Shown: positions 36,915 through 62,625 of the stretch, piece by piece
Layout: every line of letters starts with the position of its first letter
How positions within the stretch are numbered: position 1 is the stretch's first letter
Origin: Pristiophorus japonicus
Taxonomy: Eukaryota
Assembly: GCF_044704955.1 (NCBI RefSeq)
Contig: NC_091994.1
Span: 48,732,001 to 48,796,000 of the forward strand
Reading direction: 5' to 3'
Length of the DNA stretch: 64,000 nucleotides
Translations under genes and position numbers: made by a program
The notes under the pieces: generated by a model
What the model was told of the DNA's origin: nothing
Seen by the model: the letters and a program-made list of their open reading frames with translations, nothing else
The model's database searches: none

Positions 36915-39900
36915 ACAGCCAGTGACACAGAAACATTTACACAGGCTACGTAAAGAGACAAAACCAGTTACATAGGCTATATAAAGAGACAGGACCAGTA
37001 ACACAGGATTTTTAAAGAGACAGGACCCATCAGCCAGGCTTTTTAAAGAAACAAGAAAATTCATGCAGGCTTCTCTTCTAACAGAGACAGGACCAGTCGC
37101 ACAGGTTTTGAAAAGAGATACGAACAGTTACAAAGGCTATTTAAAGGGACAGGACCAGTCACAAATGCTTTTAAAAGAGACACAAACAGTCACACGGGCT
37201 TTTTAATGAGACAAGATAAGGGACAAAGGTTTTTAAATGAGCCAGCTCTGGTCACATGGGCATTTTAAGGAGACAGGACCAGTTAAACAGGCTTTTTAAA
37301 GAAATAGGACCAGTTACACAGGCATTTTAAAGAGACAGAACCAGTTACACAGGCTTTGTAAGGAGACAGACCCAATTTCAGAGGTTATTTAAAGAGACAG
37401 GACCAGTTATAGAGGTTATTTAAAGAGACAGGACCAGTTGGACAGGCTTTTTAAAAAGACAAAATCAGTCACATGCTTTGCAAATAGTCCGGCCAGTCAC
37501 AATGGCTTTTTAAGTGATATATATTATGACTAGCTGAGGTCTAAGCACTGATCCTTGCGATATCCCGCAAGTTACTGCCTGCCAACTCAAAAATGACCTG
37601 TTTATTCCTTCTCTGTTTCCTGTCCGTTAACCAACCCTCAATCTACGCTAGTTTAATACCCACAATCCCATGAACCCTAATTTTGATTATTAACCTCTTG
37701 TGTGGCACCTTATCGAATGCATTCTGAAAATCCAAATATAGCTCATCCACTAGTTCCCTCTTATTTATTCTGCTAGTTATCTCAATAAACATCAAACATG
37801 ATTTCCCTTTCATGAAACCGTGTTGACTCTGCTCAATCAGATTATTATTTTCTAAGTGCCCTGCTACCACATCTTTAATAATAGATCCTAGTATTTTCCC
37901 TAATACTGATGTAAGGATAACTGTTCTGTTGTTCCACATTTTCCCTCCTCCTCCTTTCTTAAATAGCGGAGTTACATTAGCTAACTTCCAAGCCGTGGGA
38001 ACCATTCTACAATCTATTGAATTTTGAAAGATGACAAATAATGTATCTCCGTAGCCACCTCGTTCACAACCCTAGGATGGAGGCAATCAGGTCCAGGGGA
38101 TTTATCGGCTTTCAGTCCCATTAACTTCTCCGTGAAGACACAAGGTATTTACTTAATTTCTCTGCTATTTCCTTATTCCTCTTTATCACGTATCCTGTCT
38201 CAGCCTGCAAGGGACCCACATTTGCTTTCGCTAATCTTTTCAATTTTACATAACTATAGAAGCTTTTAACAGTCTGTTTTTATGTCTCTCACTAGTTCAC
38301 TCTCATATTCTAATTTCCTTTTCTTTACCAATTTCTTGGTCCTCCTTTGCTGAATTCTAAAATGCTCCCAATCCTCAGGCTCGCTACTATTTTTGGCAAC
38401 ATTATAAGCCTCTTCCGTTGATCTAATACTATCTTTAACTTCTTTTGTAGGCATGATTGAACCTGTGGGGGTTTTGTGCTTAAAGGAATGTATATTTGTT
38501 GCAAATTATGTATTAAGTCTTTAACTGCTAGCCATTGCTTGTCAATGGTCATACCTTTTAACATAGTTTCCCAATCTACCTCAGCCAACCCGCCCATATA
38601 CCTACTTAGTTTGCCTTGTTTAGCTTTAAGACCCCAGTTTCAGATTTAACGAAATCACTTTCAAACTTAATATAAAATTCTACCATATTATGGTCACTCT
38701 TCCCTAAAGGCTTGTTCACTACAGGGTTATTAATTAACCCTTTTTCATTTCACAATACTAGATCTAAAATAGCCTGTTCCCTAGTTGGGTTCTCAACATA
38801 TTAATCTAGAAAACTTTCTTCCTTGAATTCGTCCTCCACACTATCACTGCAAATTTGGTTTGCCCAGTCTATATGTAGATTAAAGACCCCCATGATTATT
38901 GTATTATCCCTGTTACATGCACCTCTAATTTCCTGATTTATTTTCTGCCCTACATTACATCTACTATTTGGGGGCCTATAAACAACTCCCACCAATGTTT
39001 TCTGCTCCTTGCTCTTCCTTTGCTCCGCCCAAACTGATTCTACCTCTTGATTTTCGGAGCTAAGATCCTTTTTCTCTACTGTCTTTATGCCATCCTTCAT
39101 TATCAGGGGTACCCCTCTTCATTTTCCATGTTGCCTATCTCTTCTAAAAGTTATGTATATTGGAATGTTTCGTACCCAACCTTGGTAATTTTTTAACCAT
39201 GTCTCCGCAATAGCTATTGGATCAATATTTGCTATTTGTGCTATTAATTCTCCTATCTTGTTGCGAATGCTTCAGGACCAGGCACAGGACCAGTCACAAA
39301 GGCTTTTTAAAGAGACAAGACCAGTCACACAGTTTTCTTATAGAGACACGGCCAGCAACACAGGCTTTATAAAGAGAACGGTACAGTCACACAATCTTCT
39401 TAAAGAAACAATATCTGCCACATGAGTTTTTTTAAAAGGAAGGGACCAGTGAAACAGGCTTTTTAAATAGACAGGACGGGTCACACAGGCTTTTTAATGT
39501 TGCAGGGCCCGTCACAATGGTTATTAAATCAGGCAGGACCAGGCGCACATGATTTTTAAGGAGACAGGAACGTCATAGTGGCTTCTTAAAGAGCCAAGTC
39601 AAGAAACACAGGCTTTTTTAGGAGACAGGATCTGTCACACATGTGCTTTAAAGAGACAGGACCAGTCACATAGGCCTTTTAAAGAAAAAGGTCCAGTAAT
39701 ACATGATATATAGAGATTGTACCAGTCACACATGCTTTATAAAGAAACACGACCACTCATACAGGTTTTTAAGGATTCAGGACAAGTCATACAGGCTTTT
39801 TAGAGAGACAGTACCTCTCTAATTCTTAAAGCAACAGGGCCACACACACAGGCATTTTAAAGAGATAAGACCAACCACTTAGGCTTTTTAAAGAGGCAGG

Positions 39901-40000
39901 ACCAGTCACACAGACTTTTTAAAGAGACAGGACCAATCATCTGGCTTTTAAAGAGATAGTACCAGAAACTCAGGCTTTTTAAAGAGTCTGATCCAGTCAC
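36915..40000. repeat. ~35-bp minisatellite (TTTTAAAGAGACAGGACCAGTCACACAGGC), blocks 36915-37515 and 39274-40000
   Basis: Dozens of degenerate units; split by a CR1 fragment. Confidence 0.92.
37530..39273 (-). mobile_element. Old CR1 ORF2 fragment (endonuclease to RT)
   Basis: VGVVYRPP, ANVTPLFKKG, LDFQNAFDKVPH. Confidence 0.9.
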
Positions 40001-43323: not shown

Positions 43324-43429
43324 GTGAATATTAACATACTCACTCACACACTATCTACCATGTGAGGGGCTGGTGTCCATTTACCCATAATGCCCGAGCT
43401 CAGTGATTCTTTACTCGTAATGGCTAAGT

Positions 43430-43900
43430 CAGTGTCAGCATCGAGCACTCCCAGAGCAGGTCCAATACAGTGCTCCCTCTACATTACCCTGACAATGTAC
43501 CCCACTTTACTCCCAGTGTCAGCATTGAGCACTCCCAGAGCAGGTGCAATGCAGAGCACCCTCTACATTACCCTAACAATGTATCTCCACTTTATTCCTA
43601 CTGTCAGCATCGAGCACTCCCAGAGCAGATACAAGAGAGAGCTGCATTTCTACATTAAACAGACAGTGCACCTACAATTGATACCCAATGTCCACATTGA
43701 GCACTCCCTGAGCAGGTACAATAAAGAGCTCCCTGTACATTACCCTGACAGTGTACCTCTACTTTACAACAAGTGTTAGAATAGAGCAATACTGGGCCAG
43801 GTCCAATACATAGCTCCCTCCATATTACCATGACAATGTTTCCCCACTTTATTCCCAGTGTCAGCATCGAGCACTCCCAGAGCAGGTACAATACAGAGCT
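43430..43900 (+). repeat. Diverged ~84-bp tandem repeat related to the 64-bp satellite
   Basis: Repeated GTCAGCATCGAGCACTCCCAGAGCAGGTACAATACAGAGCTCCCTCTACATTACCC. Confidence 0.8.
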
Positions 43901-44483
43901 TGGGCTGTAGAGAGGGCTTTAAACCAATTAGGGGGACATTTCAGGTGAACGAAAATTTAAAAAGTCAAGGAAAAAGGAGAAGGCAATAGAACAGTTTAGC
44001 ACTGTGGGAAATCAAAACCAGAGTGTTCCAGGAAGGGACAGAATGTATAAACATAAAAGTGCATCAGAAAGTGTGGTCAAATCAAGAAAAAATGGTAAAA
44101 AAAAATTAAAAGCTCTTTATCTGAATGCATGCAGCATTCGTAACAAAATAGATGAGTTGACTGCACACATAGATACAAATGTCTATGATCTGATAGACAT
44201 TAAAGAGACGTGGTATGAAGGTGACCAAGGCTGGGAACTGAATATTCAGGGGTATTTGACAATTTGGAAGGATAGACAGTGCTGTTAATAAACAACGAGA
44301 TCAGTGTAGTAGTGAAAAATGATATTGGCTCAGAGGATCAAGATGTTGAATCAGTTTGGGTGGAGATAAGGAAAAATAAGGGGGAAAAGTCACTGGTGGG
44401 CATAGTCCATAGGCCCCCAAACAATAGCTACACTTCTGGACGGAGTATAAATCAAGAAATAATGGAGGCTTGTAAAAAAGTAA

Positions 44484-47400
44484 TGTCATGTATTCAACTA
44501 TCATTATAACCCATGTATAAGCTGGCCTAAGTTGTACACCTTGAGAACATTGACCACAAGGGGGTGAACTTGTGGGAGACACTCCTAACTTGGACTTTCA
44601 GATATAAAAGGGGAAGCTCCACCACCTTCATCACTTGAGGTCTTGGTAATAAAGATAGCTGGTCACAGAGTGACCTTCTCTCAAGTATGGGCCTCGTGTG
44701 CATTTATACTGTATAGTAAGTACATATCATTGGCGACGAGAAACTGGGATTTAAACCATGCGAGCATGGCCACTAGCAGCACAGAAGAGAGGTACTGTGT
44801 TGGTGATGATTGGGATGACTTTATTGAGAGACTACAGCAAAGTTTTGTCACAAAGGAATGGTTGGGACAGGATTTGGCCGACAAACGCAGGGTTCATCTC
44901 CTGACAGTTTGTGGATCAGAACGTACTCCCTGATGAAGGACTTTCTAGCGCCAGAGAAGCCAGCGGACAAGACGTTCGAAGAGCTCAGTAGGTTGATCGG
45001 GGAACACCTTAAACCGGCGAGCAGCATGCACATGGCGAGACACCGGTTTTACACGCACCGGCGGCGAGAAGGGCAAAGCGTTCCAGACTTCGTGGCAGAT
45101 CTCCGGCGACTGGCGAGCTTATGTAAGTTCCCAGATGCATGCAGAGCGGAGATGCTGCGAGACTTTTTTATTGAGGGCATCGGGCACGCTGGGGTTTTCA
45201 GGAAACTGATTGAGACCAAAGACTTGACCTTGGAAGCGGCAGCTCTGATAGCCCAGACATTTATCTCAGGGGAGGAAAAGACCAGATGATGTATTACAAA
45301 AATCTCGGCTCAAATGCGGAAACGACCAGGGAGTCAACATTGTTAATGCGGCACACAGTTCTCTAGGCAAACAAGGGAAATTGGACATGCCCCAGCATGT
45401 AGTCGAATCCAAAGGGGGAATTCAACAGAGACAATGGCTAGCTGAACGGCGATTCATGCCATCGCAATGGACAATGTGGCCAGTAATGGGGCCATCAACA
45501 CCTGTTAATGGTGCGCTTAAGGACAGTTACAGAGACAGTCAGAGACGATCGACTGGTAATGGACCTTTTGTTTCCAACAGCAGAGCCTCCAGCTCATGCT
45601 GGAGGAGTGGAGTCAAACACCCAGCCAGAGCTTGCAGGTATCAGCAGAATATACCTGCTGAAACTGCAACGTCAGTGGTCACTTGGCGCGTATGTGCAGG
45701 AAGCCTGCAGCCAGATTGATATACGAGGAGGATGGGCCCGATGTAAGCCTTACGAGGCCAAATGAATACTGGGGGAAATCGCTGGAAGCTGAAATTCAGC
45801 GAGTTCATGTGGAGCACATCTACAGTTCATATATGAGGAGGCCACGGATAATGATGAAAGTCCTCCTCAATGACATCCCAGTATTAATGGAGCTAGACAA
45901 AGGGGCCAGCCAGTCCCTGATGGGTATCAAACAGTTTGAAAGGTGGTGGGTGTCCAAGGCCAGGAGGCCAAAATTATTGCCGATTGACGCACAGCTGCGG
46001 ACATATACAAAGGAGGTAATTCCGGTGCTAGGCAGTGCCACGGTAGTCGTGACCCACAAAGATTCGGAGAACAGGTTGCCACTCTGGATTATTCCGGGGG
46101 ACGGTCCCGCACTACTGGGGAGGAGTTGGCTTGCTGTCATGAACTGGAAATGGGACGATGTCAATGCAATTTCCTCTGTGGAGCGAGTATCATGCTCACA
46201 GGTCCTGGACAAATTTGACTCATTATTTCAACCCGGCATCGGCACTTTCATGGGGTCCAAGGTAGTGATTCACATAAACCCCCACCCAAGTCCAGTACAC
46301 CACAAGGCCAGAGCGGTGCCGTACGTGATGCGGGAAAAGATAGAATGTGAATTGGACCGCCTGCTGAGGGAAGGCATCATCTCGCCAGTCAAATTCAGTG
46401 ATTGGGAAAGCCCGATCATGTCGGTGCTCAAGGCGGATGGGTCGGTCAGGATATGTGGCGATTACAAGGCCACCATCAATCGGGTGTCACTCCAAGACCA
46501 GTACCCGCTACCGAGAGCGGATGATCTCTTTGCGATGCTATCCGGTGGCAAACTTTTTTCAAAATTGGACCTGACCTCAGCTTACATGACCCAGGAGCTG
46601 GCGAGTGAGTCGAAGAAGCTGACCACCATCACGACACACAATATAAAAGATGTCCGTTCGGAATTCGGTCGGCTGCCGCGATCTTTCACCGAAATATGGA
46701 AAGCCTCCTCAAGTCGATTCCAAGGACGGTGGTTTTTCAAGACTACATCCTCATCACGGGTCGTGATACTGAAGAACACCTCCACAACCTGGAGGAGGTG
46801 CTACGCAGACTGGATCGGGTAGGGCTGCGACTGAAAAAGGCGAAGTGCATCTTCTTAGCTCCAGAGGTAGAATTCCTGGGGATGAAGGTAGCAGCAGATG
46901 GGATCAGACCTACTGCGTCCAAAACAGAAGCGATCCAGAGAGCACCCAGACCCTGTAACACGACAGAGCTGCGTTCGTTCCTCGGGCTCCTGAACTATTT
47001 TGGTAACTTTCTTCCCAAATTGAGCCCGCTGTTAGAACCGCTACATGTGCTCCTATGCAAAGGTCATGATTGGGTGTGCGGGGACAGCCAGGAAAGGGCT
47101 TTTGATAGAGCACGCGATTTGTTATGCTCCAACAAACTGTTAACGTTATATGACCCATGTAAGAAACTTGTTTTAACATGCAATGCATCGTCCTATGGTG
47201 TCGGGTGTGTGTTGCAGCATGTGAATGCCAATGGTCAGTTACAGCCGGTAGCTTATGCCTCCAGAAGTCTGTCCCAGGCAGAAAGGGGCTACGGAAAAGG
47301 AAGCGCTAGCATTTTTATATGCAGTAAAAAAAATGCACCAGTACCTGTTTGGCAGGAAATTTGAGCTGGAGACAGATGACAAATCCCTAACGTCCCTTTT

Positions 47401-49208: not shown

Positions 49209-49301
49209 AGTAACGGCAATAATTATGGCCGATTTTAACCTTCATATTGATTGGACCAAGAGTTTATAGAGTGTATCTGGGCTAATTTCCTTGGACAGTG
49301 C

Positions 49302-56150: not shown

Positions 56151-57285
56151 GTAAGAATACAGGCTTTGGAGAGTATTTTGAGGGATTAGGCATTGCGAGT
56201 GCAAAATGAACCAAAGACTTTCAATGAAAAGCTTGATCTACAAAGACAAACAGACTGCTTTGGATTTCCTGCTGAGACAAGGTTCTGGTTCAGTCACCTG
56301 TAGCTGTGGTGTTACAATCACACATTTTATCACTGGGAAACACACGTATTATCGCTGGGAAACACACGTATCATCACTGGGAAACGCACGTATTATCACT
56401 GGGAAATAACTCTGGGGAGCTCAGAGTTGTCTTCGTTTATTTGCTCATCTATCTTCTCTGAAGGTATAAGCACACAGAGCATTTGCAAACTGTTGAAACA
56501 TAGAAACATAGAAAATAGGTGCAGGAGTCGGCCATTCGGCCATTCGAGCCTGCACCACCATTCAATAAGGTCATGGCTGATCATTCACCTCAGTACCCCT
56601 TTCTTGCTTTCTCTCCATACCCCTTGATCCCCTTAGCCCTAAGGGCCATATCAAACTCGCTCTTGAATATATCCAATGAACTGGCACCAACAACTCTCTG
56701 CGGCAGGAAATTCCACAGGTTAACAACTCTCTGAGTGAAGAAGTTTCTCTTCATCTCAGTCCTAAATGGCCTACCCCTTATCCTAAGATTATGTCCCCTG
56801 GTTCTGGACTTCCCCAAAATCGGGAACATTCTTCCTGCATCTAACCTGTCCAATCCCGTCAGAATCTTATACGTTTCTATGAGATCCCCTCTCATCCTTC
56901 TAACCTCCAGTGAATAAAGGCCCAGTTGATCCAGTCTCTCCTCACATGACAGTCCAGCCATCCCTGGAATCAGTCTGGTGAACCTTCGCTGCACTCCCTC
57001 AAGAGGCGGGAGCTCGGAGCAGCGCGAGTCCAGGGTCGGCGAGAGGCCTATAAAGGCCAGCGGGAGTCGAGCAGTCAGTCGAGGAGGCGGGAGCTCGGAG
57101 CAGCTCGAGTCCGGGGTCGGCGAGAGGCGTACCGGTGCAGCTACAGGGAGAAGGCAAAAAAACAAAGGTGACGTCACAGCCTAGGGGGTAAGTGATTGGT
57201 GAGTAGTTTTTCCTTTTTCTTCTTATATTGGTCAGTAACTTTTAACATTGTTATTACCAGTTTAAGTGTATCTAAGGGTTAAGAC

Positions 57286-58233
57286 ATGGCAGGAGAGCTC
57301 GGTCGGGTGTTATGCTCCTCCTGTACCATGTGGGAACTCAGGGACGCTTCCGGTGTCCCTGACGACTACGTGTGTGAGAAGTGTATCCGCCTCCAGCTCC
57401 TGACGGTCCGCGTTGCGGAATTGGAGCTGAGGGTGGATTCACTCTGGAGCATCCACGATGCTGAGAATGACGTGAGTATCACGTGTAGTGAGTTGGTCTT
57501 ACCGCAGGGAAAGGGTCCACAGCCAGATAGGGAATGGAAGACCAACAGGAAGAGTAGAGCAAGGAAGGTAGTGCAGGGGTCCCCTGCGGTCATCCCCCTG
57601 CAAAACAGATACACCGCTTTGGGTACTGTTGAGGGGAATGACTCATCAGGGGAGGGCAGCAGCAGCCAAGTTCATGGCACCGTGGCTGGCTCTGCTGCAC
57701 AGGAGGGCAAGAAAAAGAGTGGGAGAGCGATAGTGATAGGGGATTCAATTGTGAGGGGAATAGATAGGCGTTTCTGCGGCCGCAACCGAGACTCCAGGAT
57801 GGTATGTTGCCTCCCTGGTGCAAGGGTCAAGGATGTCTCGGAGCGGGTGCAGGACATTCTGAAATGGGAGGGAGAACAGCCAGTTGTCGTGGTGCACATT
57901 GGTACCAACGACATAGGCAAAAAAAGGGATGAGGTCCTACGAAACGAATTTAAGGAGCTAGGAGCTAAATTAAAAAGTAGGACCTCAAAAGTAGTAATCT
58001 CGGGATTGCTACCAGTGCCACGTGATAGTCAGAGTAGGAATCGCAGGATAGCGCAGATGAATACGTGGCTTGAGCAGTGGTGCAGCAGGGAGGGATTCAA
58101 ATTCCTGGGGCATTGGGACCGGTTCTGGGGGAGGTGGGACCAGTACAAACCGGACGGTCTGCACCTGGGCAGGACTGGAACCAATGTCCTAGGGGGAGTG
58201 TTTGCTAGTGCTGTTGGGGAGGATTTAAACTAA
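57286..58233 (+). CDS. CR1 ORF1p (zinc finger/leucine zipper + SGNH esterase), intact
   Basis: CxxC..CxxC, heptad leucines, GDS, GTND and DGLH blocks. Confidence 0.95.
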   Translation: MAGELGRVLCSSCTMWELRDASGVPDDYVCEKCIRLQLLTVRVAELELRVDSLWSIHDAENDVSITCSELVLPQGKGPQPDREWKTNRKSRARKVVQGSPAVIPLQNRYTALGTVEGNDSSGEGSSSQVHGTVAGSAAQEGKKKSGRAIVIGDSIVRGIDRRFCGRNRDSRMVCCLPGARVKDVSERVQDILKWEGEQPVVVVHIGTNDIGKKRDEVLRNEFKELGAKLKSRTSKVVISGLLPVPRDSQSRNRRIAQMNTWLEQWCSREGFKFLGHWDRFWGRWDQYKPDGLHLGRTGTNVLGGVFASAVGEDLN

Positions 58234-61217
58234 TATGGCAGGGGGATGGGAACCAATGCAGGGAGACAGAGGGAAACAAAAAGGAGCCAAAAGCAAAAGA
58301 CAGAAAGGAGATGAGGAAAAGTGTAGGGCAGAGAAACCCAAGGCAAAGAACAAAAAGGGCCACTGTACAGCAAAATTCTAAAAGGACAAAGGGTGTTAAT
58401 AAAACAAGCCTGAAGGCTTTGTGTCTTAATGCAAGGAGTATCCGCAATAAGGTGGATGAATTAATTGTGCAAATAGATGTTAACAAATATGATGTGATTG
58501 GGATTACGGAGACGTGGCTCCAGGATGATCAGGGCTGGGAACTCAACATTCAGGGGTATTCAACATTCAGGAAGGATAGAATAAAAGGAAAAGGAGGTGG
58601 GGTAGCATTGCTGGTTAAAGAGGAGATTAATGCAATAGTTAGGAAAGACATTAGCTTGGATGATGTGGAATCTATATGGGTAGAGCTGCAGAACACCAAA
58701 GGGCAAAAAACGTTAGTAGGAGTTGTGTACAGACCTCCAAACAGTAGTAGGGATGTTGGGGAGGGCATCAAACAGGAAATTAGGGGTGCATGCAATAAAG
58801 GTGTAGCAGTTATAATGGGTGACTTTAATATGCACATAGATTGGGCTAGCCAAACTGGAAGCAATACGGTGGAGGAGGATTTCCTGGAGTGCATAAGGGA
58901 TGGTTTTCTAGACCAATATGTTGAGGAACCAACTAGGGGGGAGGCCATCTTAGACTGGGTGTTGTGTAATGAGAGAGGATTAATTAGCAATCTCATTGTG
59001 CGAGGCCCCTTGGGGAAGAGTGACCATAATATGGTGGAATTCTGCATTAGGATGGAGAATGAAACAGTAATTTCAGAGACCATGGTCCAGAACTTAAAGA
59101 AGGGTAACTTTGAAGGTATGAGGCGTGAATTGGCTAGGATAGATTGGCGAATGATACTTAGGGGGTTGACTGTGGATGGGCAATGGCAGACATTTAGAGA
59201 CCGCATGGATGAAGTACAACAATTGTACATTCCTGTCTGGCGTAAAAATAAAAAGGGGAAGGTGGCTCAACCGTGGCTATCTAGGGAAATCAGGGATAGT
59301 ATTAAAGCCAAGGAAGTGGCATACAAATTGGCCAGAAATAGCAGCGAACCTGGGGACTGGGAGAAATTTAGAACTCAGCAGAGGAGGACAAAGGGTTTGA
59401 TTAGGACAGGGAAAATGGAGTACGAGAAGAAGCTTGCAGGGAACATTAAGGCGGATTGCAAAAGTTTCTATAGGTATGTAAAGAGAAAAAGGTTGGTGAA
59501 GACAAACGTAGGTCCCCTGCAGTCAGAATCAGGGGAAGTCATAACGGGGAACAAAGAAATGGCGGATCAATTGAACAAGTACTTTGGTTCGGTATTCACT
59601 AAGGAGGATACAAACAACCTTCCGGATATAAAAGGGGTCAGAGGGTCTAGTAAGGAAGAGGAACTGAGGGAAATCTTTATTAGTCGGGAAATTGTGTTGG
59701 GGAAATTGATGGGATTGAAGGCCGATAAATCCCCAGGGCCTGATGGCCTGCATCCTAGAGTACTTAAGGAGGTGGCCTTGGAAATAGCGGATGCATTGAC
59801 AGTCATTTTCCAACATTCCATTGACTCTGGATCAGTTCCTATGGAGTGGAGGGTAGCCAATGTAACCCCACTTTTTAAAAAATGAGGGAGAGAGAAAACA
59901 GGGAATTATAGACCGGTCAGCCTGACCTCAGTAGTGGGTAAAATGATGGAATCAATTATTAAGGATGTCATAGCAGTGCATCTGGAAAATGGTGACATGA
60001 TAGGTCGAAGTCAGCATGGATTTGTGAAAGGGAAATCATGCTTGACAAATCTTCTGGAATTTTTTGAGGATGTTTCCAGTAAAGTGGACAAAGGAGAACC
60101 AGTTGATGTGGTATATTTGGACTTTCAGAAGGCTTTCGACAAGGTCCCACACAAGAGATTAATGTGCAAAGTTAAAGCACATGGGATTGGGGGTAGTGTG
60201 CTGACGTGGATTGAGAACTGGTTGTCAGACAGGAAGCAAAGAGTAGGAGTAAACGGGTACTTTTCAGAATGGCAGGCAGTGACTAGTGGAGTGCCGCAAG
60301 GTTCTGTGCTGGGGCCCCAGCTGTTTACATTGTACATTAATGATTTAGACGAGGGGATTAAATGCAGTATCTCCAAATTTGCGGATGATACTAAGTTGGG
60401 TGGCAGTGTGAGCTGCGAGGAGGATGCTATTAGGCTGCAGAGTGACTTGGATAGGTTAGGTGAGTGGGCAAATGCATGGCAGATGAAGTATAATGTGGAT
60501 AAATGTGAGGTTATCCACTTTGGTGGTAAAAACAGAGAGACAGACTATTATCTGAATGGTGACAGATTAGGAAAAGGGAAGGTGCAACGAGACCTGGGTG
60601 TCATGGTACATCAGTCATTGAAGGTTGGCATGCAGGTACAGCAGGCGGTTAAGAAAGCAAATGGCATGTTGGCCTTCATAGCGAGGGGATTTGAATACAG
60701 GGGCAGGGAGGTGTTGCTACAGTTGTACAGGGCCTTGGTGAGGCCACACCTGGAGTATTGTGTACAGTTTTGGTCTCCTAACTTGAGGAAGGACATTCTT
60801 GCTATTGAGGGAGTGCAGCGAAGGTTCACCAGACTGATTCCCGGGATGGCGGGACTGACCTATCAAGAAAGATTGGATCAATTGGGCTTGTATTCACTGG
60901 AGTTCAGAAGAATGAGAGGGGACCTCATAGAAACGTTTAAAATTCTGACGGGTTTAGACAGGTTAGATGCAGAAAGAATGTTCCCAATGTTGGGGAGGTC
61001 CAGAACCAGGGGTCACAGTCTGAGGATAAGGGGTAAGCCATTTAGGACCGAGATGAGGAGAAACTTCTTCACCCAGAGAGTGGTGAACCTGTGGAATTCT
61101 CTACCACAGAAAGTAGTTGAGGCCAATTCACTAAATATATTCAAAAGGGAGTTAGATGAAGTCCTTACTACTCGGGGGATCAAGGGTTATGGCGAGAAAG
61201 CAGGAAGGGGGTACTGA
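58224..61217 (+). CDS. CR1 ORF2p (APE endonuclease + RT) with one in-frame stop at 59883-59885
   Basis: ORFs 58311-59885 and 59934-61217 are in the same frame (offset 1623); KK-TGA-GRE where KKGG is expected; GDFN, SDH, PQGSVLGP, FADD; frame is open back to 58224. Confidence 0.95.
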
Positions 61218-62625
61218 AGTTTCATGTTCAGCCATGAACTCATTGAATGGCGGTGCAGGCTAGAAGGGCTGAATGGCCTGCTCCTGCACCTATTTTCTAT
61301 GTTTCTATGTTAATAGCAAGAATGTCCTTCCTCAGATTCGGAGACCAAAACTGAACACAATATTCCAGGTGAGGCCTCACTAAAGCCATGTACAACTGCA
61401 GTAAGACCTCCCTGCTCCTATACTCAAATCCTGTAGCTATGAAGGCCAACATACCAGTTGCCTTCTTCACCGCCTGCCGTACCTGCATGCCAACTTTCAA
61501 TGACTGATGTACCATGACACCCAGGTCTTGTTGCACCTCCTCTTTTCCTAATCTGCCACGATTCAGATAATATTCTGCCTTCGTGTTTTTCCCCCAAAAT
61601 GGATAACCTCACATTTATCCACATTATACTGCATCTGCCATGCATTTGCCCACTCACCTAACCTGTCCAAGTCATCCTATAGCCTCTTAGTGTCCTCCTC
61701 ACAGCTCACACTGCCACCCAGTTTAGTGTCATCTGCAAACGTGGAGATATTACACTCAATTCCTTCATCTAAATCGTTAATGTATATTGTAAAGAGCTGG
61801 GGTCCCAGCACTGAGCCCTGCAGCACTCCACTAGTCACTGCCTGCCATTCTGAAAAGGACCCGTTTATCCCGACTCTCTGCTTCCTGTCTACCAACCAGT
61901 TCTCTATCCACGTCAGTACCTTACCCCCAATACCATGCGCTTTGATTTTGCACACCAATCTCTTGTGCAGGACCTTGTCAAAAGCCTTTTGAAAGTCCAA
62001 ATACACCACATCCACTGGTTCTCCATTGTCCAATCGGCAAGTTACATCCTCAAAAAATTCCAGAAGATTCGTCAAGCATGATTTCCCAAATAATCAATTA
62101 TAAATCGTTTTTACTAATTGTAATGCACTTAGTTAGGACTCATTATATTCAAAATCCCGTGTTGCATCATCAGCATAGAAACTGAAAAAAATAACAGAAA
62201 AGGCTTGTGCTGAGGCTGGAGATAATATTTCCCAAGACCCGTGCCAGGAGACAGAGGGTCACAGGCTCATGGTTGGGTGGAATTGGATGTGTAGGATAAA
62301 CACAATTGGACGGATTTTTCATTGGCTCCGTTCGTGGGGCGTATCTTAGTGAATTTGGGTCATTCTCATCGTGGTAGGGTCAGGAAAGGCATCGATCGGG
62401 ACAGGGGCAGATGGTATGCCAGTAACAGGGATGAGGAATTGTCCTCCCTACTACCCAAATCACTGTAATGGGTAATATAATTCTCATTTGTAATTTGACA
62501 ACTTCTGCTCAACTACTGAGTGTATCAATTCTCACTTATCGTTAAATAAAATCATAATTGTTCGCACTGTGGTGTCAGCTTCAGTCCATTGAACAGACAG
62601 TCCAAAGAGACTTCCAATGTAATCT

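Follow-up and report, generated by a model that had tools for sequence, protein, structure and literature searches.

A conserved slippery heptamer at the ORF1 stop of esterase-bearing CR1 elements points to programmed -1 frameshifting into ORF2

Based on the sequence of the junction between its two frames and on the conservation of that junction, we propose that a CR1-type LINE in the genome of Pristiophorus japonicus very probably uses programmed -1 ribosomal frameshifting to make an ORF1p-ORF2p fusion. In the window (the whole 64,000-nucleotide stretch of DNA analysed), a slippery heptamer lies in the ORF1 register directly before the ORF1 stop (Table 1), ORF2 is in -1 phase, the heptamer is conserved at the nucleotide level and a G-run follows at fixed spacing. 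A first-pass annotation of this DNA had read the ORF1 end as GAT TTA AAC TAA, with TTTAAAC in the X_XXY_YYZ register at 58224-58230, and had located G-runs at 58241-45, 58248-50, 58261-63 and 58271-73, the first of them 10 nt past the heptamer; all of these positions are exact. Comparative evidence strongly backs its reading of a frameshift and a fusion, whereas its four-run G-quadruplex finds no support as a general stimulator.

Table 1. Features of the CR1 element and its ORF1/ORF2 junction in the window
Feature	Position	Strand	Evidence or remark
CR1-type LINE, almost full length, from the youngest subfamily of a highly abundant family	57003..61311	+	99% identity to copy L230 across 57003-61311
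ORF1, 315 aa: Cys-rich N-terminus, C-terminal SGNH/GDSL esterase, Asp-Leu-Asn-stop end	57286..58233	+	PF13472, E 3.7e-14
11-nt exact complement of 58238-58248, within ORF1; candidate long-range stimulatory duplex	57591..57601	+	this lineage only
ORF2 frame (endonuclease and reverse transcriptase)	58209..61217	+	PF03372, PF00078
Slippery heptamer U_UUA_AAC, ORF1 register; predicted -1 shift site	58224..58230	+	sequence, codon conservation, covariation
ORF1 stop TAA, immediately 3' of heptamer	58231..58233	+	sequence
Segment from heptamer end to base before Asn of N-A-R-S	58231..58427	+	
Short +1-frame ORF, 48 aa; AUG (58235) one base past ORF1 stop; out of ORF2 frame	58235..58381	+	lineage-limited
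First G-run, 10 nt past heptamer; candidate stimulator core	58241..58245	+	sole downstream element common to lineages
Four G3+ runs, possible three-tier G-quadruplex	58241..58273	+	lineage-limited; predicted -8.2 vs -7.8 kcal/mol without G4
3' tail of 8-nt repeats	61290..61311	+	period 8, 2.9 copies

Results

The element and its copies

Elements of the CR1 group end in short (8-nt) tandem repeats instead of poly(A). Judged by its 3' repeats and its domains (SGNH esterase, APE endonuclease and reverse transcriptase), the element is a CR1-group LINE with an esterase ORF1. Copies were collected from its own genome by protein and pattern searches; about 49,000 carry ORF1, and the esterase was 100% identical in 150 of 150 scored matches. 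Homologues bear the names of sharks, rays, turtles and birds, and scans of viral and prokaryote contigs returned no relatives. The ORF1 esterase is homologous to the SGNH esterase of zebrafish ZfL2-1 ORF1p (PDB 4c1b, E 3.5e-30; PMC3905857) in an alignment that ends before the ORF1 terminus, and the term 'frameshift' is absent from that paper. The window copy has a premature ORF2 stop at 59883-59885, so that its frame is open over 58209-59885.

Conservation of the heptamer

Codon usage was counted in 22 sequence clusters drawn from the Pristiophorus japonicus genome and from metagenome records. The Leu codon of the heptamer is TTA in 21 of the 22, against 11% among nearby Leu codons, and the Asn codon is AAC in all 22, compared with 24/64 among Asn codons nearby; the binomial p-values overstate the effect, since the clusters, like the proteins, are related by descent. 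The codon before the Leu ends in T in 19 clusters and in G in the other 3, with nine amino acids represented. As a control, the Leu of the DxxHL motif is encoded by all six codons (TTA in 3/29). The commonest ORF1 stop was TAA in 9 clusters, TAG in 13 and TGA in none. Genome-wide, T/G_TTA_AAC is present in 46,075 of 49,227 DGLHL..LN-stop copies, and the commonest variant is the imperfect G_TTA_AAC (31,382/49,227, ~64%). The first base of the heptamer went from T to G and back to T in the window's lineage, always through shift-competent letters, and the youngest clade regained U_UUA_AAC. Conservation of the heptamer thus goes far beyond Leu-Asn coding, the check that the first-pass annotation had suggested: the synonymous freedom of both codons is absent.

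Phase, linkers and start codons

The ORF2 frame is -1 relative to ORF1 and in the window stays open between the heptamer and the endonuclease, which confirms an earlier claim that a -1 slip enters it freely. The first ATG of this frame is at 58311, and the N-A-R-S motif has its Asn at 58428. Random ORF1/ORF2 phase had been named as an outcome that would count against frameshifting; of 72 dispersed young loci, 65 keep the -1 phase. Among clusters, the commonest linker is in -1 phase in 14/20, with in-phase lengths of 110, 116, 125, 143, 152, 164, 197, 203 and 278 nt and, in one case, a duplicated linker of 419 nt, and each of the six out-of-phase clusters is one decayed-looking copy. In an old decayed family the -1 phase is found in 10 of 27 copies. 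What looked like +1-phase 'subfamilies' proved to be segmental duplicates.

Upstream of the heptamer the -1 frame runs into a stop at most 6 codons away in 16/22 clusters. Downstream, the first Met lies between linker codons 3 and 29, or there is none; no Met precedes the first motif of the endonuclease in L064-L066 and in any of the 7 in-phase copies from the 164-nt family. An AUG beside or overlapping the ORF1 stop in the ORF2 frame is the commonest state in 4/24 clusters and is absent in the window, and hence a conserved AUG at the ORF1 stop, as in SART1, was not observed.

ORF1 protein ends and alternative shift sites

From sharks to birds, 80 of 92 ORF1 homologues bearing the DxxH motif end in LN, and the last Asn is invariant in a 52-row alignment. 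In a set of 88 distinct tails taken from 50%-cluster representatives, the residue before the terminal Asn is L, G or K in 50 of the 53 tails that end in Asn (L/G/K/P background 22%). Gln precedes GN in 9/10 tails and Ser precedes KN in 2/2, and such Gln-Gly-Asn and Ser-Lys-Asn ends fit the alternative shift sites G_GGA_AAC and A_AAA_AAC, which distant ORF1s would use to judge from their protein ends alone. Residues with pyrimidine-only and purine-only codings stand at 14:1 before LN and at 0:9 before GN/KN. According to clade assignments from a quick tree, one clade has x-K-N followed by tails of varying length, so that the motif is uncoupled from the stop, and nine esterases of a well-supported sister clade have no fixed end.

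The two variant heptamers were not seen in DNA in searches of viral and prokaryote contigs, the own genome and ORF2 N-termini. The Gln-Gly-Asn family was not found in the Pristiophorus japonicus genome, where the best matches (37-43%) were all of LN type. Of 76 ORF2 proteins with long N-termini, 19 have F-K-L starts, mostly in one lineage and in 15 cases with no Met before the Asn; G-K-L or K-K-L starts were absent from the same set. Longer fused proteins were also looked for in a weak search, which yielded two proteins, both unrelated. Exclusion of Glu, Lys, Gln, Met and Trp at position -3 (2/87) was discarded as a weak signal, because buried helix positions show the same pattern.

The downstream stimulator

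GGGG starts 10 nt past the heptamer in 13 of 22 clusters and 7-12 nt past it in 21. Contigs from four other organisms align to ~58254, where depth drops, and the conserved block reaches ~21 nt beyond the ORF1 stop. The four-run pattern occurs at 89/104 loci in the window's lineage and 14/28 in an older family, but at 0/15 in a sister family and in no metagenome cluster, and is confined to two shark clusters and one singleton. G-quadruplexes stimulated best with a 6-8 nt spacer and short loops (PMC3919603), whereas the window offers a 10-nt spacer and loops of 2+10+7 (19 nt in total). The four-run G-quadruplex put forward by the first-pass annotation is therefore unsupported as a general feature.

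The long-range duplex within ORF1 RNA, whose 58238-58248 side starts 7 nt past the heptamer, was found post hoc; its 11 bp were reached by 7 of 2000 synonymous shuffles, and with no covariation elsewhere it is unsupported as a general stimulator beyond the window's lineage. A local hairpin or pseudoknot was rejected (z = 0.2; -1.2 to 1.5 across 16 loci). The leading candidate, though at less than even odds, is the lone G-run in the role of a linear motif that a protein binds or that touches the ribosome. G-quadruplexes are a weaker candidate, and the long-range duplex on the one hand, the adjacent stop or something else on the other, appear equally doubtful as stimulators.

Discussion

A model for ORF2 expression

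How would this junction work? With the heptamer placed directly before the stop and ORF2 accessible in the -1 frame, a minority of the ribosomes would shift back by one base, presumably by tandem tRNA slippage, and continue into an esterase-linker-endonuclease-RT fusion of about 1310 aa. Most ribosomes would stop and release ORF1p, resulting in a low ORF2p:ORF1p ratio. Retroviruses obtain their fused protein, Gag-Pol, through a ribosomal slip. We speculate, with no great confidence, that the esterase-ORF1 branch of CR1 makes a Gag-Pol-like -1 fusion animal-wide, swapping heptamers that are among the strongest known (U_UUA_AAC, G_UUA_AAC, G_GGA_AAC, A_AAA_AAC and perhaps U-runs) and using as stimulator a bare G-run 10 nt downstream that is bound by a protein, possibly its own ORF1p, with no folded RNA. 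Such a LINE would autoregulate its reverse transcriptase and tether it to a membrane-binding esterase.

Alternative explanations

Termination-reinitiation, in which ribosomes stop at the ORF1 end and begin again on ORF2, with or without a nearby AUG, to yield a separate ORF2p, is unlikely. It would suit the stop that directly follows the motif in all DNA seen, the in-frame AUG lying 2 nt (TAATG; L092, L116, L129) or 5 nt (L068, L069, L081) from the start of the stop, and the AUG at 58311 that precedes the endonuclease in the window. The position of the AUG is unconserved and several lineages have none, which also speaks against the dependence of ORF2 on AUG 58311 that the first-pass annotation had listed as a possible refutation. 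On C1, a post-stop AUG in the ORF2 frame occurs in nine of the first 30 copies, but eight of these arose by segmental duplication from two decayed insertions (flanks 93-99% identical, frame breaks or stops in common) and the remaining one is itself broken. Moreover, reinitiation leaves the fixed TTA and AAC codons, the preceding T or G and the L/G/K switch unexplained. PMC3894237 and PMC3708506 describe this route for SART1 (UAAUG), and mammalian L1 is described as using it too. Like CR1, these elements have a bicistronic LINE RNA, and their ORF2 output is low (PMC3894237, PMC3708506, PMC5009743); there a stop-start or a spacer gives free ORF2p, whereas in CR1 a slippery site spans the overlap of the two frames and the AUG is unconserved.

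We consider very unlikely some other nucleotide-level signal (transcriptional slippage, a splice acceptor, an internal promoter or an RNA packaging element), with ORF2 made from processed RNA. The X_XXY_YYZ register kept with the ORF1 codons and a motif that seems to switch from one known ribosomal shift site to another argue against it, even if conservation does continue past the ORF1 stop and poly-G runs expand in old copies, a sign of slippage there. As the stop is TAA in 9/22 clusters, a shared AG acceptor is lacking; joints in contigs from four other organisms each occurred in one contig and revealed no common skip at the junction, in material that cannot show absence. Least probable of all is that the protein end alone matters, ORF1p needing a C-terminal Leu-Asn and the heptamer being a by-product: the invariant last Asn would be expected, yet synonymous codons are excluded, Gly-Asn and Lys-Asn substitute for Leu-Asn, and the nine esterases of the sister clade lack a constant terminus.

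Relation to known frameshift systems

The U_UUA_AAC of the window is the heptamer of the coronavirus shift site. The viral -1 heptamers listed in PMC5009743 include X_XXA_AAC sites, G_UUA_AAC being that of equine arteritis virus. These viral sites share with CR1 the heptamers, the register, a short upstream product and a polymerase in the -1 frame; CR1 differs in being a LINE of a host genome, with a predicted site and no local pseudoknot or hairpin found. Among APE-type non-LTR elements, Dictyostelium TRE5-A and TRE3-A require a -1 frameshift for ORF2 according to a figure legend of a review (PMC5911963); they belong to another clade and have another ORF1 than CR1, and the part of the review available describes no heptamer covariation. 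A search that stopped short of the older CR1 papers returned no earlier report of -1 frameshifting in CR1. The arterivirus nsp2 -1/-2 frameshift is stimulated by nsp1-beta and poly(C)-binding protein through an unstructured short motif with a 10-nt spacer (efficient at 9-11 nt; PMC4937337). This matches the spacing of the CR1 G-run by analogy only, as the arterivirus motif is C-rich with known binding proteins, whereas that of CR1 is G-rich and no binding protein is known for it.

Implications

The translation of LINE ORF2 is described as an open question in PMC3894237, and in the chicken genome CR1 is more abundant than any other interspersed repeat (PMC11835228). As the shift site is conserved, a test of the frameshift would be precise and cheap. 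If true, the model would explain how the CR1 group of LINEs makes its copying enzyme, and CR1 ORF2p would be redefined as a fusion with ORF1p, which would change both annotation and the design of retrotransposition assays. Animal genomes would then hold a large natural set of frameshift sites, which may reveal a class of stimulator based on a short G-run rather than on a pseudoknot.

RESULTS

The element and its family

The ORF1/ORF2 junction lies within a near full-length CR1 LINE (see table), and every coordinate in the first-pass annotation for the junction, the heptamer T_TTA_AAC (58224-58230, directly before the ORF1 stop) and the G-runs proved correct on re-reading. ORF2 of the window copy has a premature stop (59883-59885), and an 8-nt repeat forms the element 3′ end. 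The names on homologous proteins indicate a cartilaginous fish as host. This is a large, young family: the esterase is identical in 150 of 150 scored hits and the DGLHL..LN-stop pattern occurs at 49,227 places genome-wide.

Copy L230 has several more 5′ units than the window copy; the 5′ UTR thus has a variable monomer array. Nested CR1 fragments flank many of the other copies examined. Numerous copies in the first 2.3 Mb of contig C1 of the same genome (L211-L229) have flanks 93-100% identical; this is a region of recent segmental duplication, and copy counts from the contig start are therefore not independent. Some elements are chimeric, with the ORF1 and junction of the window lineage fused to another endonuclease/RT; the linker (ORF1 stop to endonuclease) is duplicated in some of them, and the pattern is suggestive of recombination or template switching close to the junction. 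P0009, an ORF1 with 62% identity to that of the window, carries the label Pseudomonas aeruginosa; its probable source is fish DNA in a contaminated bacterial record.

Features of the window and of chimeric copies (window positions)
Feature	Position	Strand	Description
Near full-length LINE	57003-61311	+	contains the ORF1/ORF2 junction
ORF1	57286-58233	+	SGNH esterase, related to solved LINE ORF1 esterase 4c1b
ORF2		+	-1 frame relative to ORF1; endonuclease and RT
Repeated 5′ unit	57000-57130		~80-90 nt
11-nt exact complement of 58238-58248	57591-57601		helix would start 7 nt after heptamer
Older CR1 copy	56500-57000, 61312-62100	-	young element inside its 3′ part, by eye
Second older CR1 copy	43900-44494	+	5′-truncated, starts just ahead of own junction
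TTTAAAC of second copy	43918-43924		then decayed stop, G-run, linker, endonuclease
Degenerate tandem array	39260-40000	-	adjoins truncated CR1; unit roughly 34 nt, by eye
Degenerate tandem array	43400-43900	+	adjoins truncated CR1; unit roughly 60 nt, by eye
Chimeric copies L157, L163, L179, L153, L176			linkers 419-439 nt
Chimeric copies L115, L116, L120			linker 209 nt

Conservation of the heptamer

Stops were located without reference to the heptamer. An ORF1 C-terminal match was found at 193 loci, 171 with a stop near the expected end; these formed 24 clusters at 80% identity, and leaving out two without a copy ending in Leu-Asn gave 22. They take in several families of the window genome, metagenome records with an ORF2 that reaches 87-90% identity to bird-labelled proteins, and distant records at 33-40%. 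The heptamer is kept beyond what Leu-Asn coding requires. TTA is the most frequent Leu codon in 21/22 clusters, against a background of 11% among nearby Leu codons and 3/29 in the DxxHL motif. AAC encodes Asn in 22/22, compared with 24 of 64 nearby Asn codons. The preceding codon has T as its last base in 19 clusters and G in three, although it encodes nine amino acids.

Among the 49,227 genomic copies, which are not independent, T_TTA_AAC accounts for 14,693, G_TTA_AAC for 31,382 and other forms for 3,152, so that the perfect heptamer of the window is a minority state. G_UU(A) is a recognised exception, seen in equine arteritis virus (PMC5009743, in excerpt). The endonuclease and RT halves are unbroken in G-type copies L220 and L227, duplicates of one insertion. 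In a FastTree tree the youngest clade is T-type (support 0.993, median tip 0.0009) and nested within G-type subfamilies (0.017), with a T-type outgroup; the first base thus went from T to G to T, a history that is approximate because of recombination between subfamilies. A divergent esterase-CR1 family of the same genome (L162, L170, L183) has an ORF1 that ends in His-Leu-Asn and an ORF2 with about 34% identity to named CR1 proteins; it too retains T_TTA_AAC, followed 11 nt later by a G-run.

Covariation of ORF1 ends

Leu-Asn ends 80 of the 92 ORF1 homologues having the DxxH motif (121 examined), labelled chimaera, sharks, rays, coelacanth, bony fish, frogs, turtles, squamates and birds. From 150 cluster representatives came 96 usable tails, 88 distinct: 53 end in Asn and 35 do not. 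The residue before the final Asn is Leu in 38, Gly in 10, Lys in two, Ser in two and Glu in one; X_XXA_AAC permits only Leu, Gly, Lys or Pro there. Gln precedes Gly-Asn in 9/10 and Ser precedes Lys-Asn in 2/2, and residues with pyrimidine-ending codons only stand before Leu-Asn 14 times, never before Gly-Asn or Lys-Asn. The three heptamers that PMC5009743 ranks as most prone to shifting correspond to these three ends, and we infer from protein ends alone that the heptamer may have switched among shift-prone sites. In one clade of seven members, tails of differing length come after x-Lys-Asn; a nine-member sister clade has no fixed ORF1 end. Three predicted proteins running past the site (P0042, P0076, P0141) read F-K-L there, as expected of the -1 frame. 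ORF1 ends such as Phe-Phe-Arg/His and Gly-Phe-Leu-Gly-Arg (P0119, P0160, P0199, P0228, P0216) could encode U-run shift sites of the HIV-1 type.

The candidate downstream stimulator

The four-run G-quadruplex, first put forward as the stimulator, was not borne out as a general feature: it is present in 89/104 window-lineage loci, 14/28 old-family loci and one related singleton, and absent from all remaining loci and clusters compared. Stimulation is best with 6-8 nt spacers and short loops (PMC3919603, in excerpt), whereas the window has a 10-nt spacer and loops of 2, 10 and 7 nt. The common element is a single G-run, which begins 7-12 nt past the heptamer in 21/22 clusters (10 nt in 13); its Gly is coded GGG and neighbouring residues vary. 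The 10-nt spacing equals, by analogy only, the spacer of the protein-bound PRRSV motif in the available text of PMC4937337. Alignments to contigs of four other organisms extend to about 58254 and thin beyond it. Local folding of the 120 nt from the heptamer was no better than in shuffles (z 0.2). The 11-nt complement, found post hoc, arose in 7/2000 synonymous shuffles, and 2/159 element blocks have such a partner; the duplex showed no covariation across other families.

DISCUSSION

What mechanism would connect the two reading frames? Very probably, judging from sequence comparison, tRNA-Leu and tRNA-Asn would slip in tandem at the last two ORF1 codons, yielding a minor predicted ORF1p-ORF2p fusion of about 1310 aa. 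The -1 phase of ORF2 is conserved rather than random, as this reading had anticipated: 65/72 dispersed young loci have their endonuclease in the -1 frame, and the commonest linker is in phase in 14/20 clusters, with linkers of 110 to 278 nt and a single duplicated one of 419 nt. The six out-of-phase clusters are single copies, decayed in appearance; in the old family with unstable poly-G, 10/27 copies are in phase. Over the first 30 codons past the ORF1 stop, the -1 frame is interrupted by a stop in most copies in 6/21 clusters, and each other frame in 17/21. Upstream of the heptamer, 16/22 clusters have the -1 frame closed within six codons, and in two it holds a Met.

The alternatives fit worse. 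Reinitiation at ORF2 after the ORF1 stop, an unlikely explanation, would draw on the in-frame AUG beside the stop in six loci and on a post-stop AUG in frame with ORF2 in nine of the first 30 copies on contig C1; eight of these arose by segmental duplication of two broken insertions and the remaining one is broken too, so they give no sign of an active reinitiating lineage. The first Met lies at codon 3, 4, 16, 17, 19, 22, 28 or 29 of the linker, and is absent in 7/85 stop-free linkers and in 7/7 in-phase copies of the 164-nt family. Another nucleotide-level signal behind the codon conservation is very improbable, and a constraint on the ORF1 end acting only through the protein slightly more so.

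The junction pattern is real, and the predicted frameshifting at the CR1 junction is well supported by comparative evidence. Our full-text literature search found no paper proposing it for CR1, although the original CR1 papers, outside that search, may have remarked on the overlap; CR1 goes unmentioned in the accessible portion of PMC5009743. A -1 frameshift is described as a requirement of TRE5-A and TRE3-A in Dictyostelium (PMC5911963, in excerpt), and frameshifting in LINEs is therefore not categorically new. What would be new is the use of -1 frameshifting, an already known mechanism, in a major animal LINE group.
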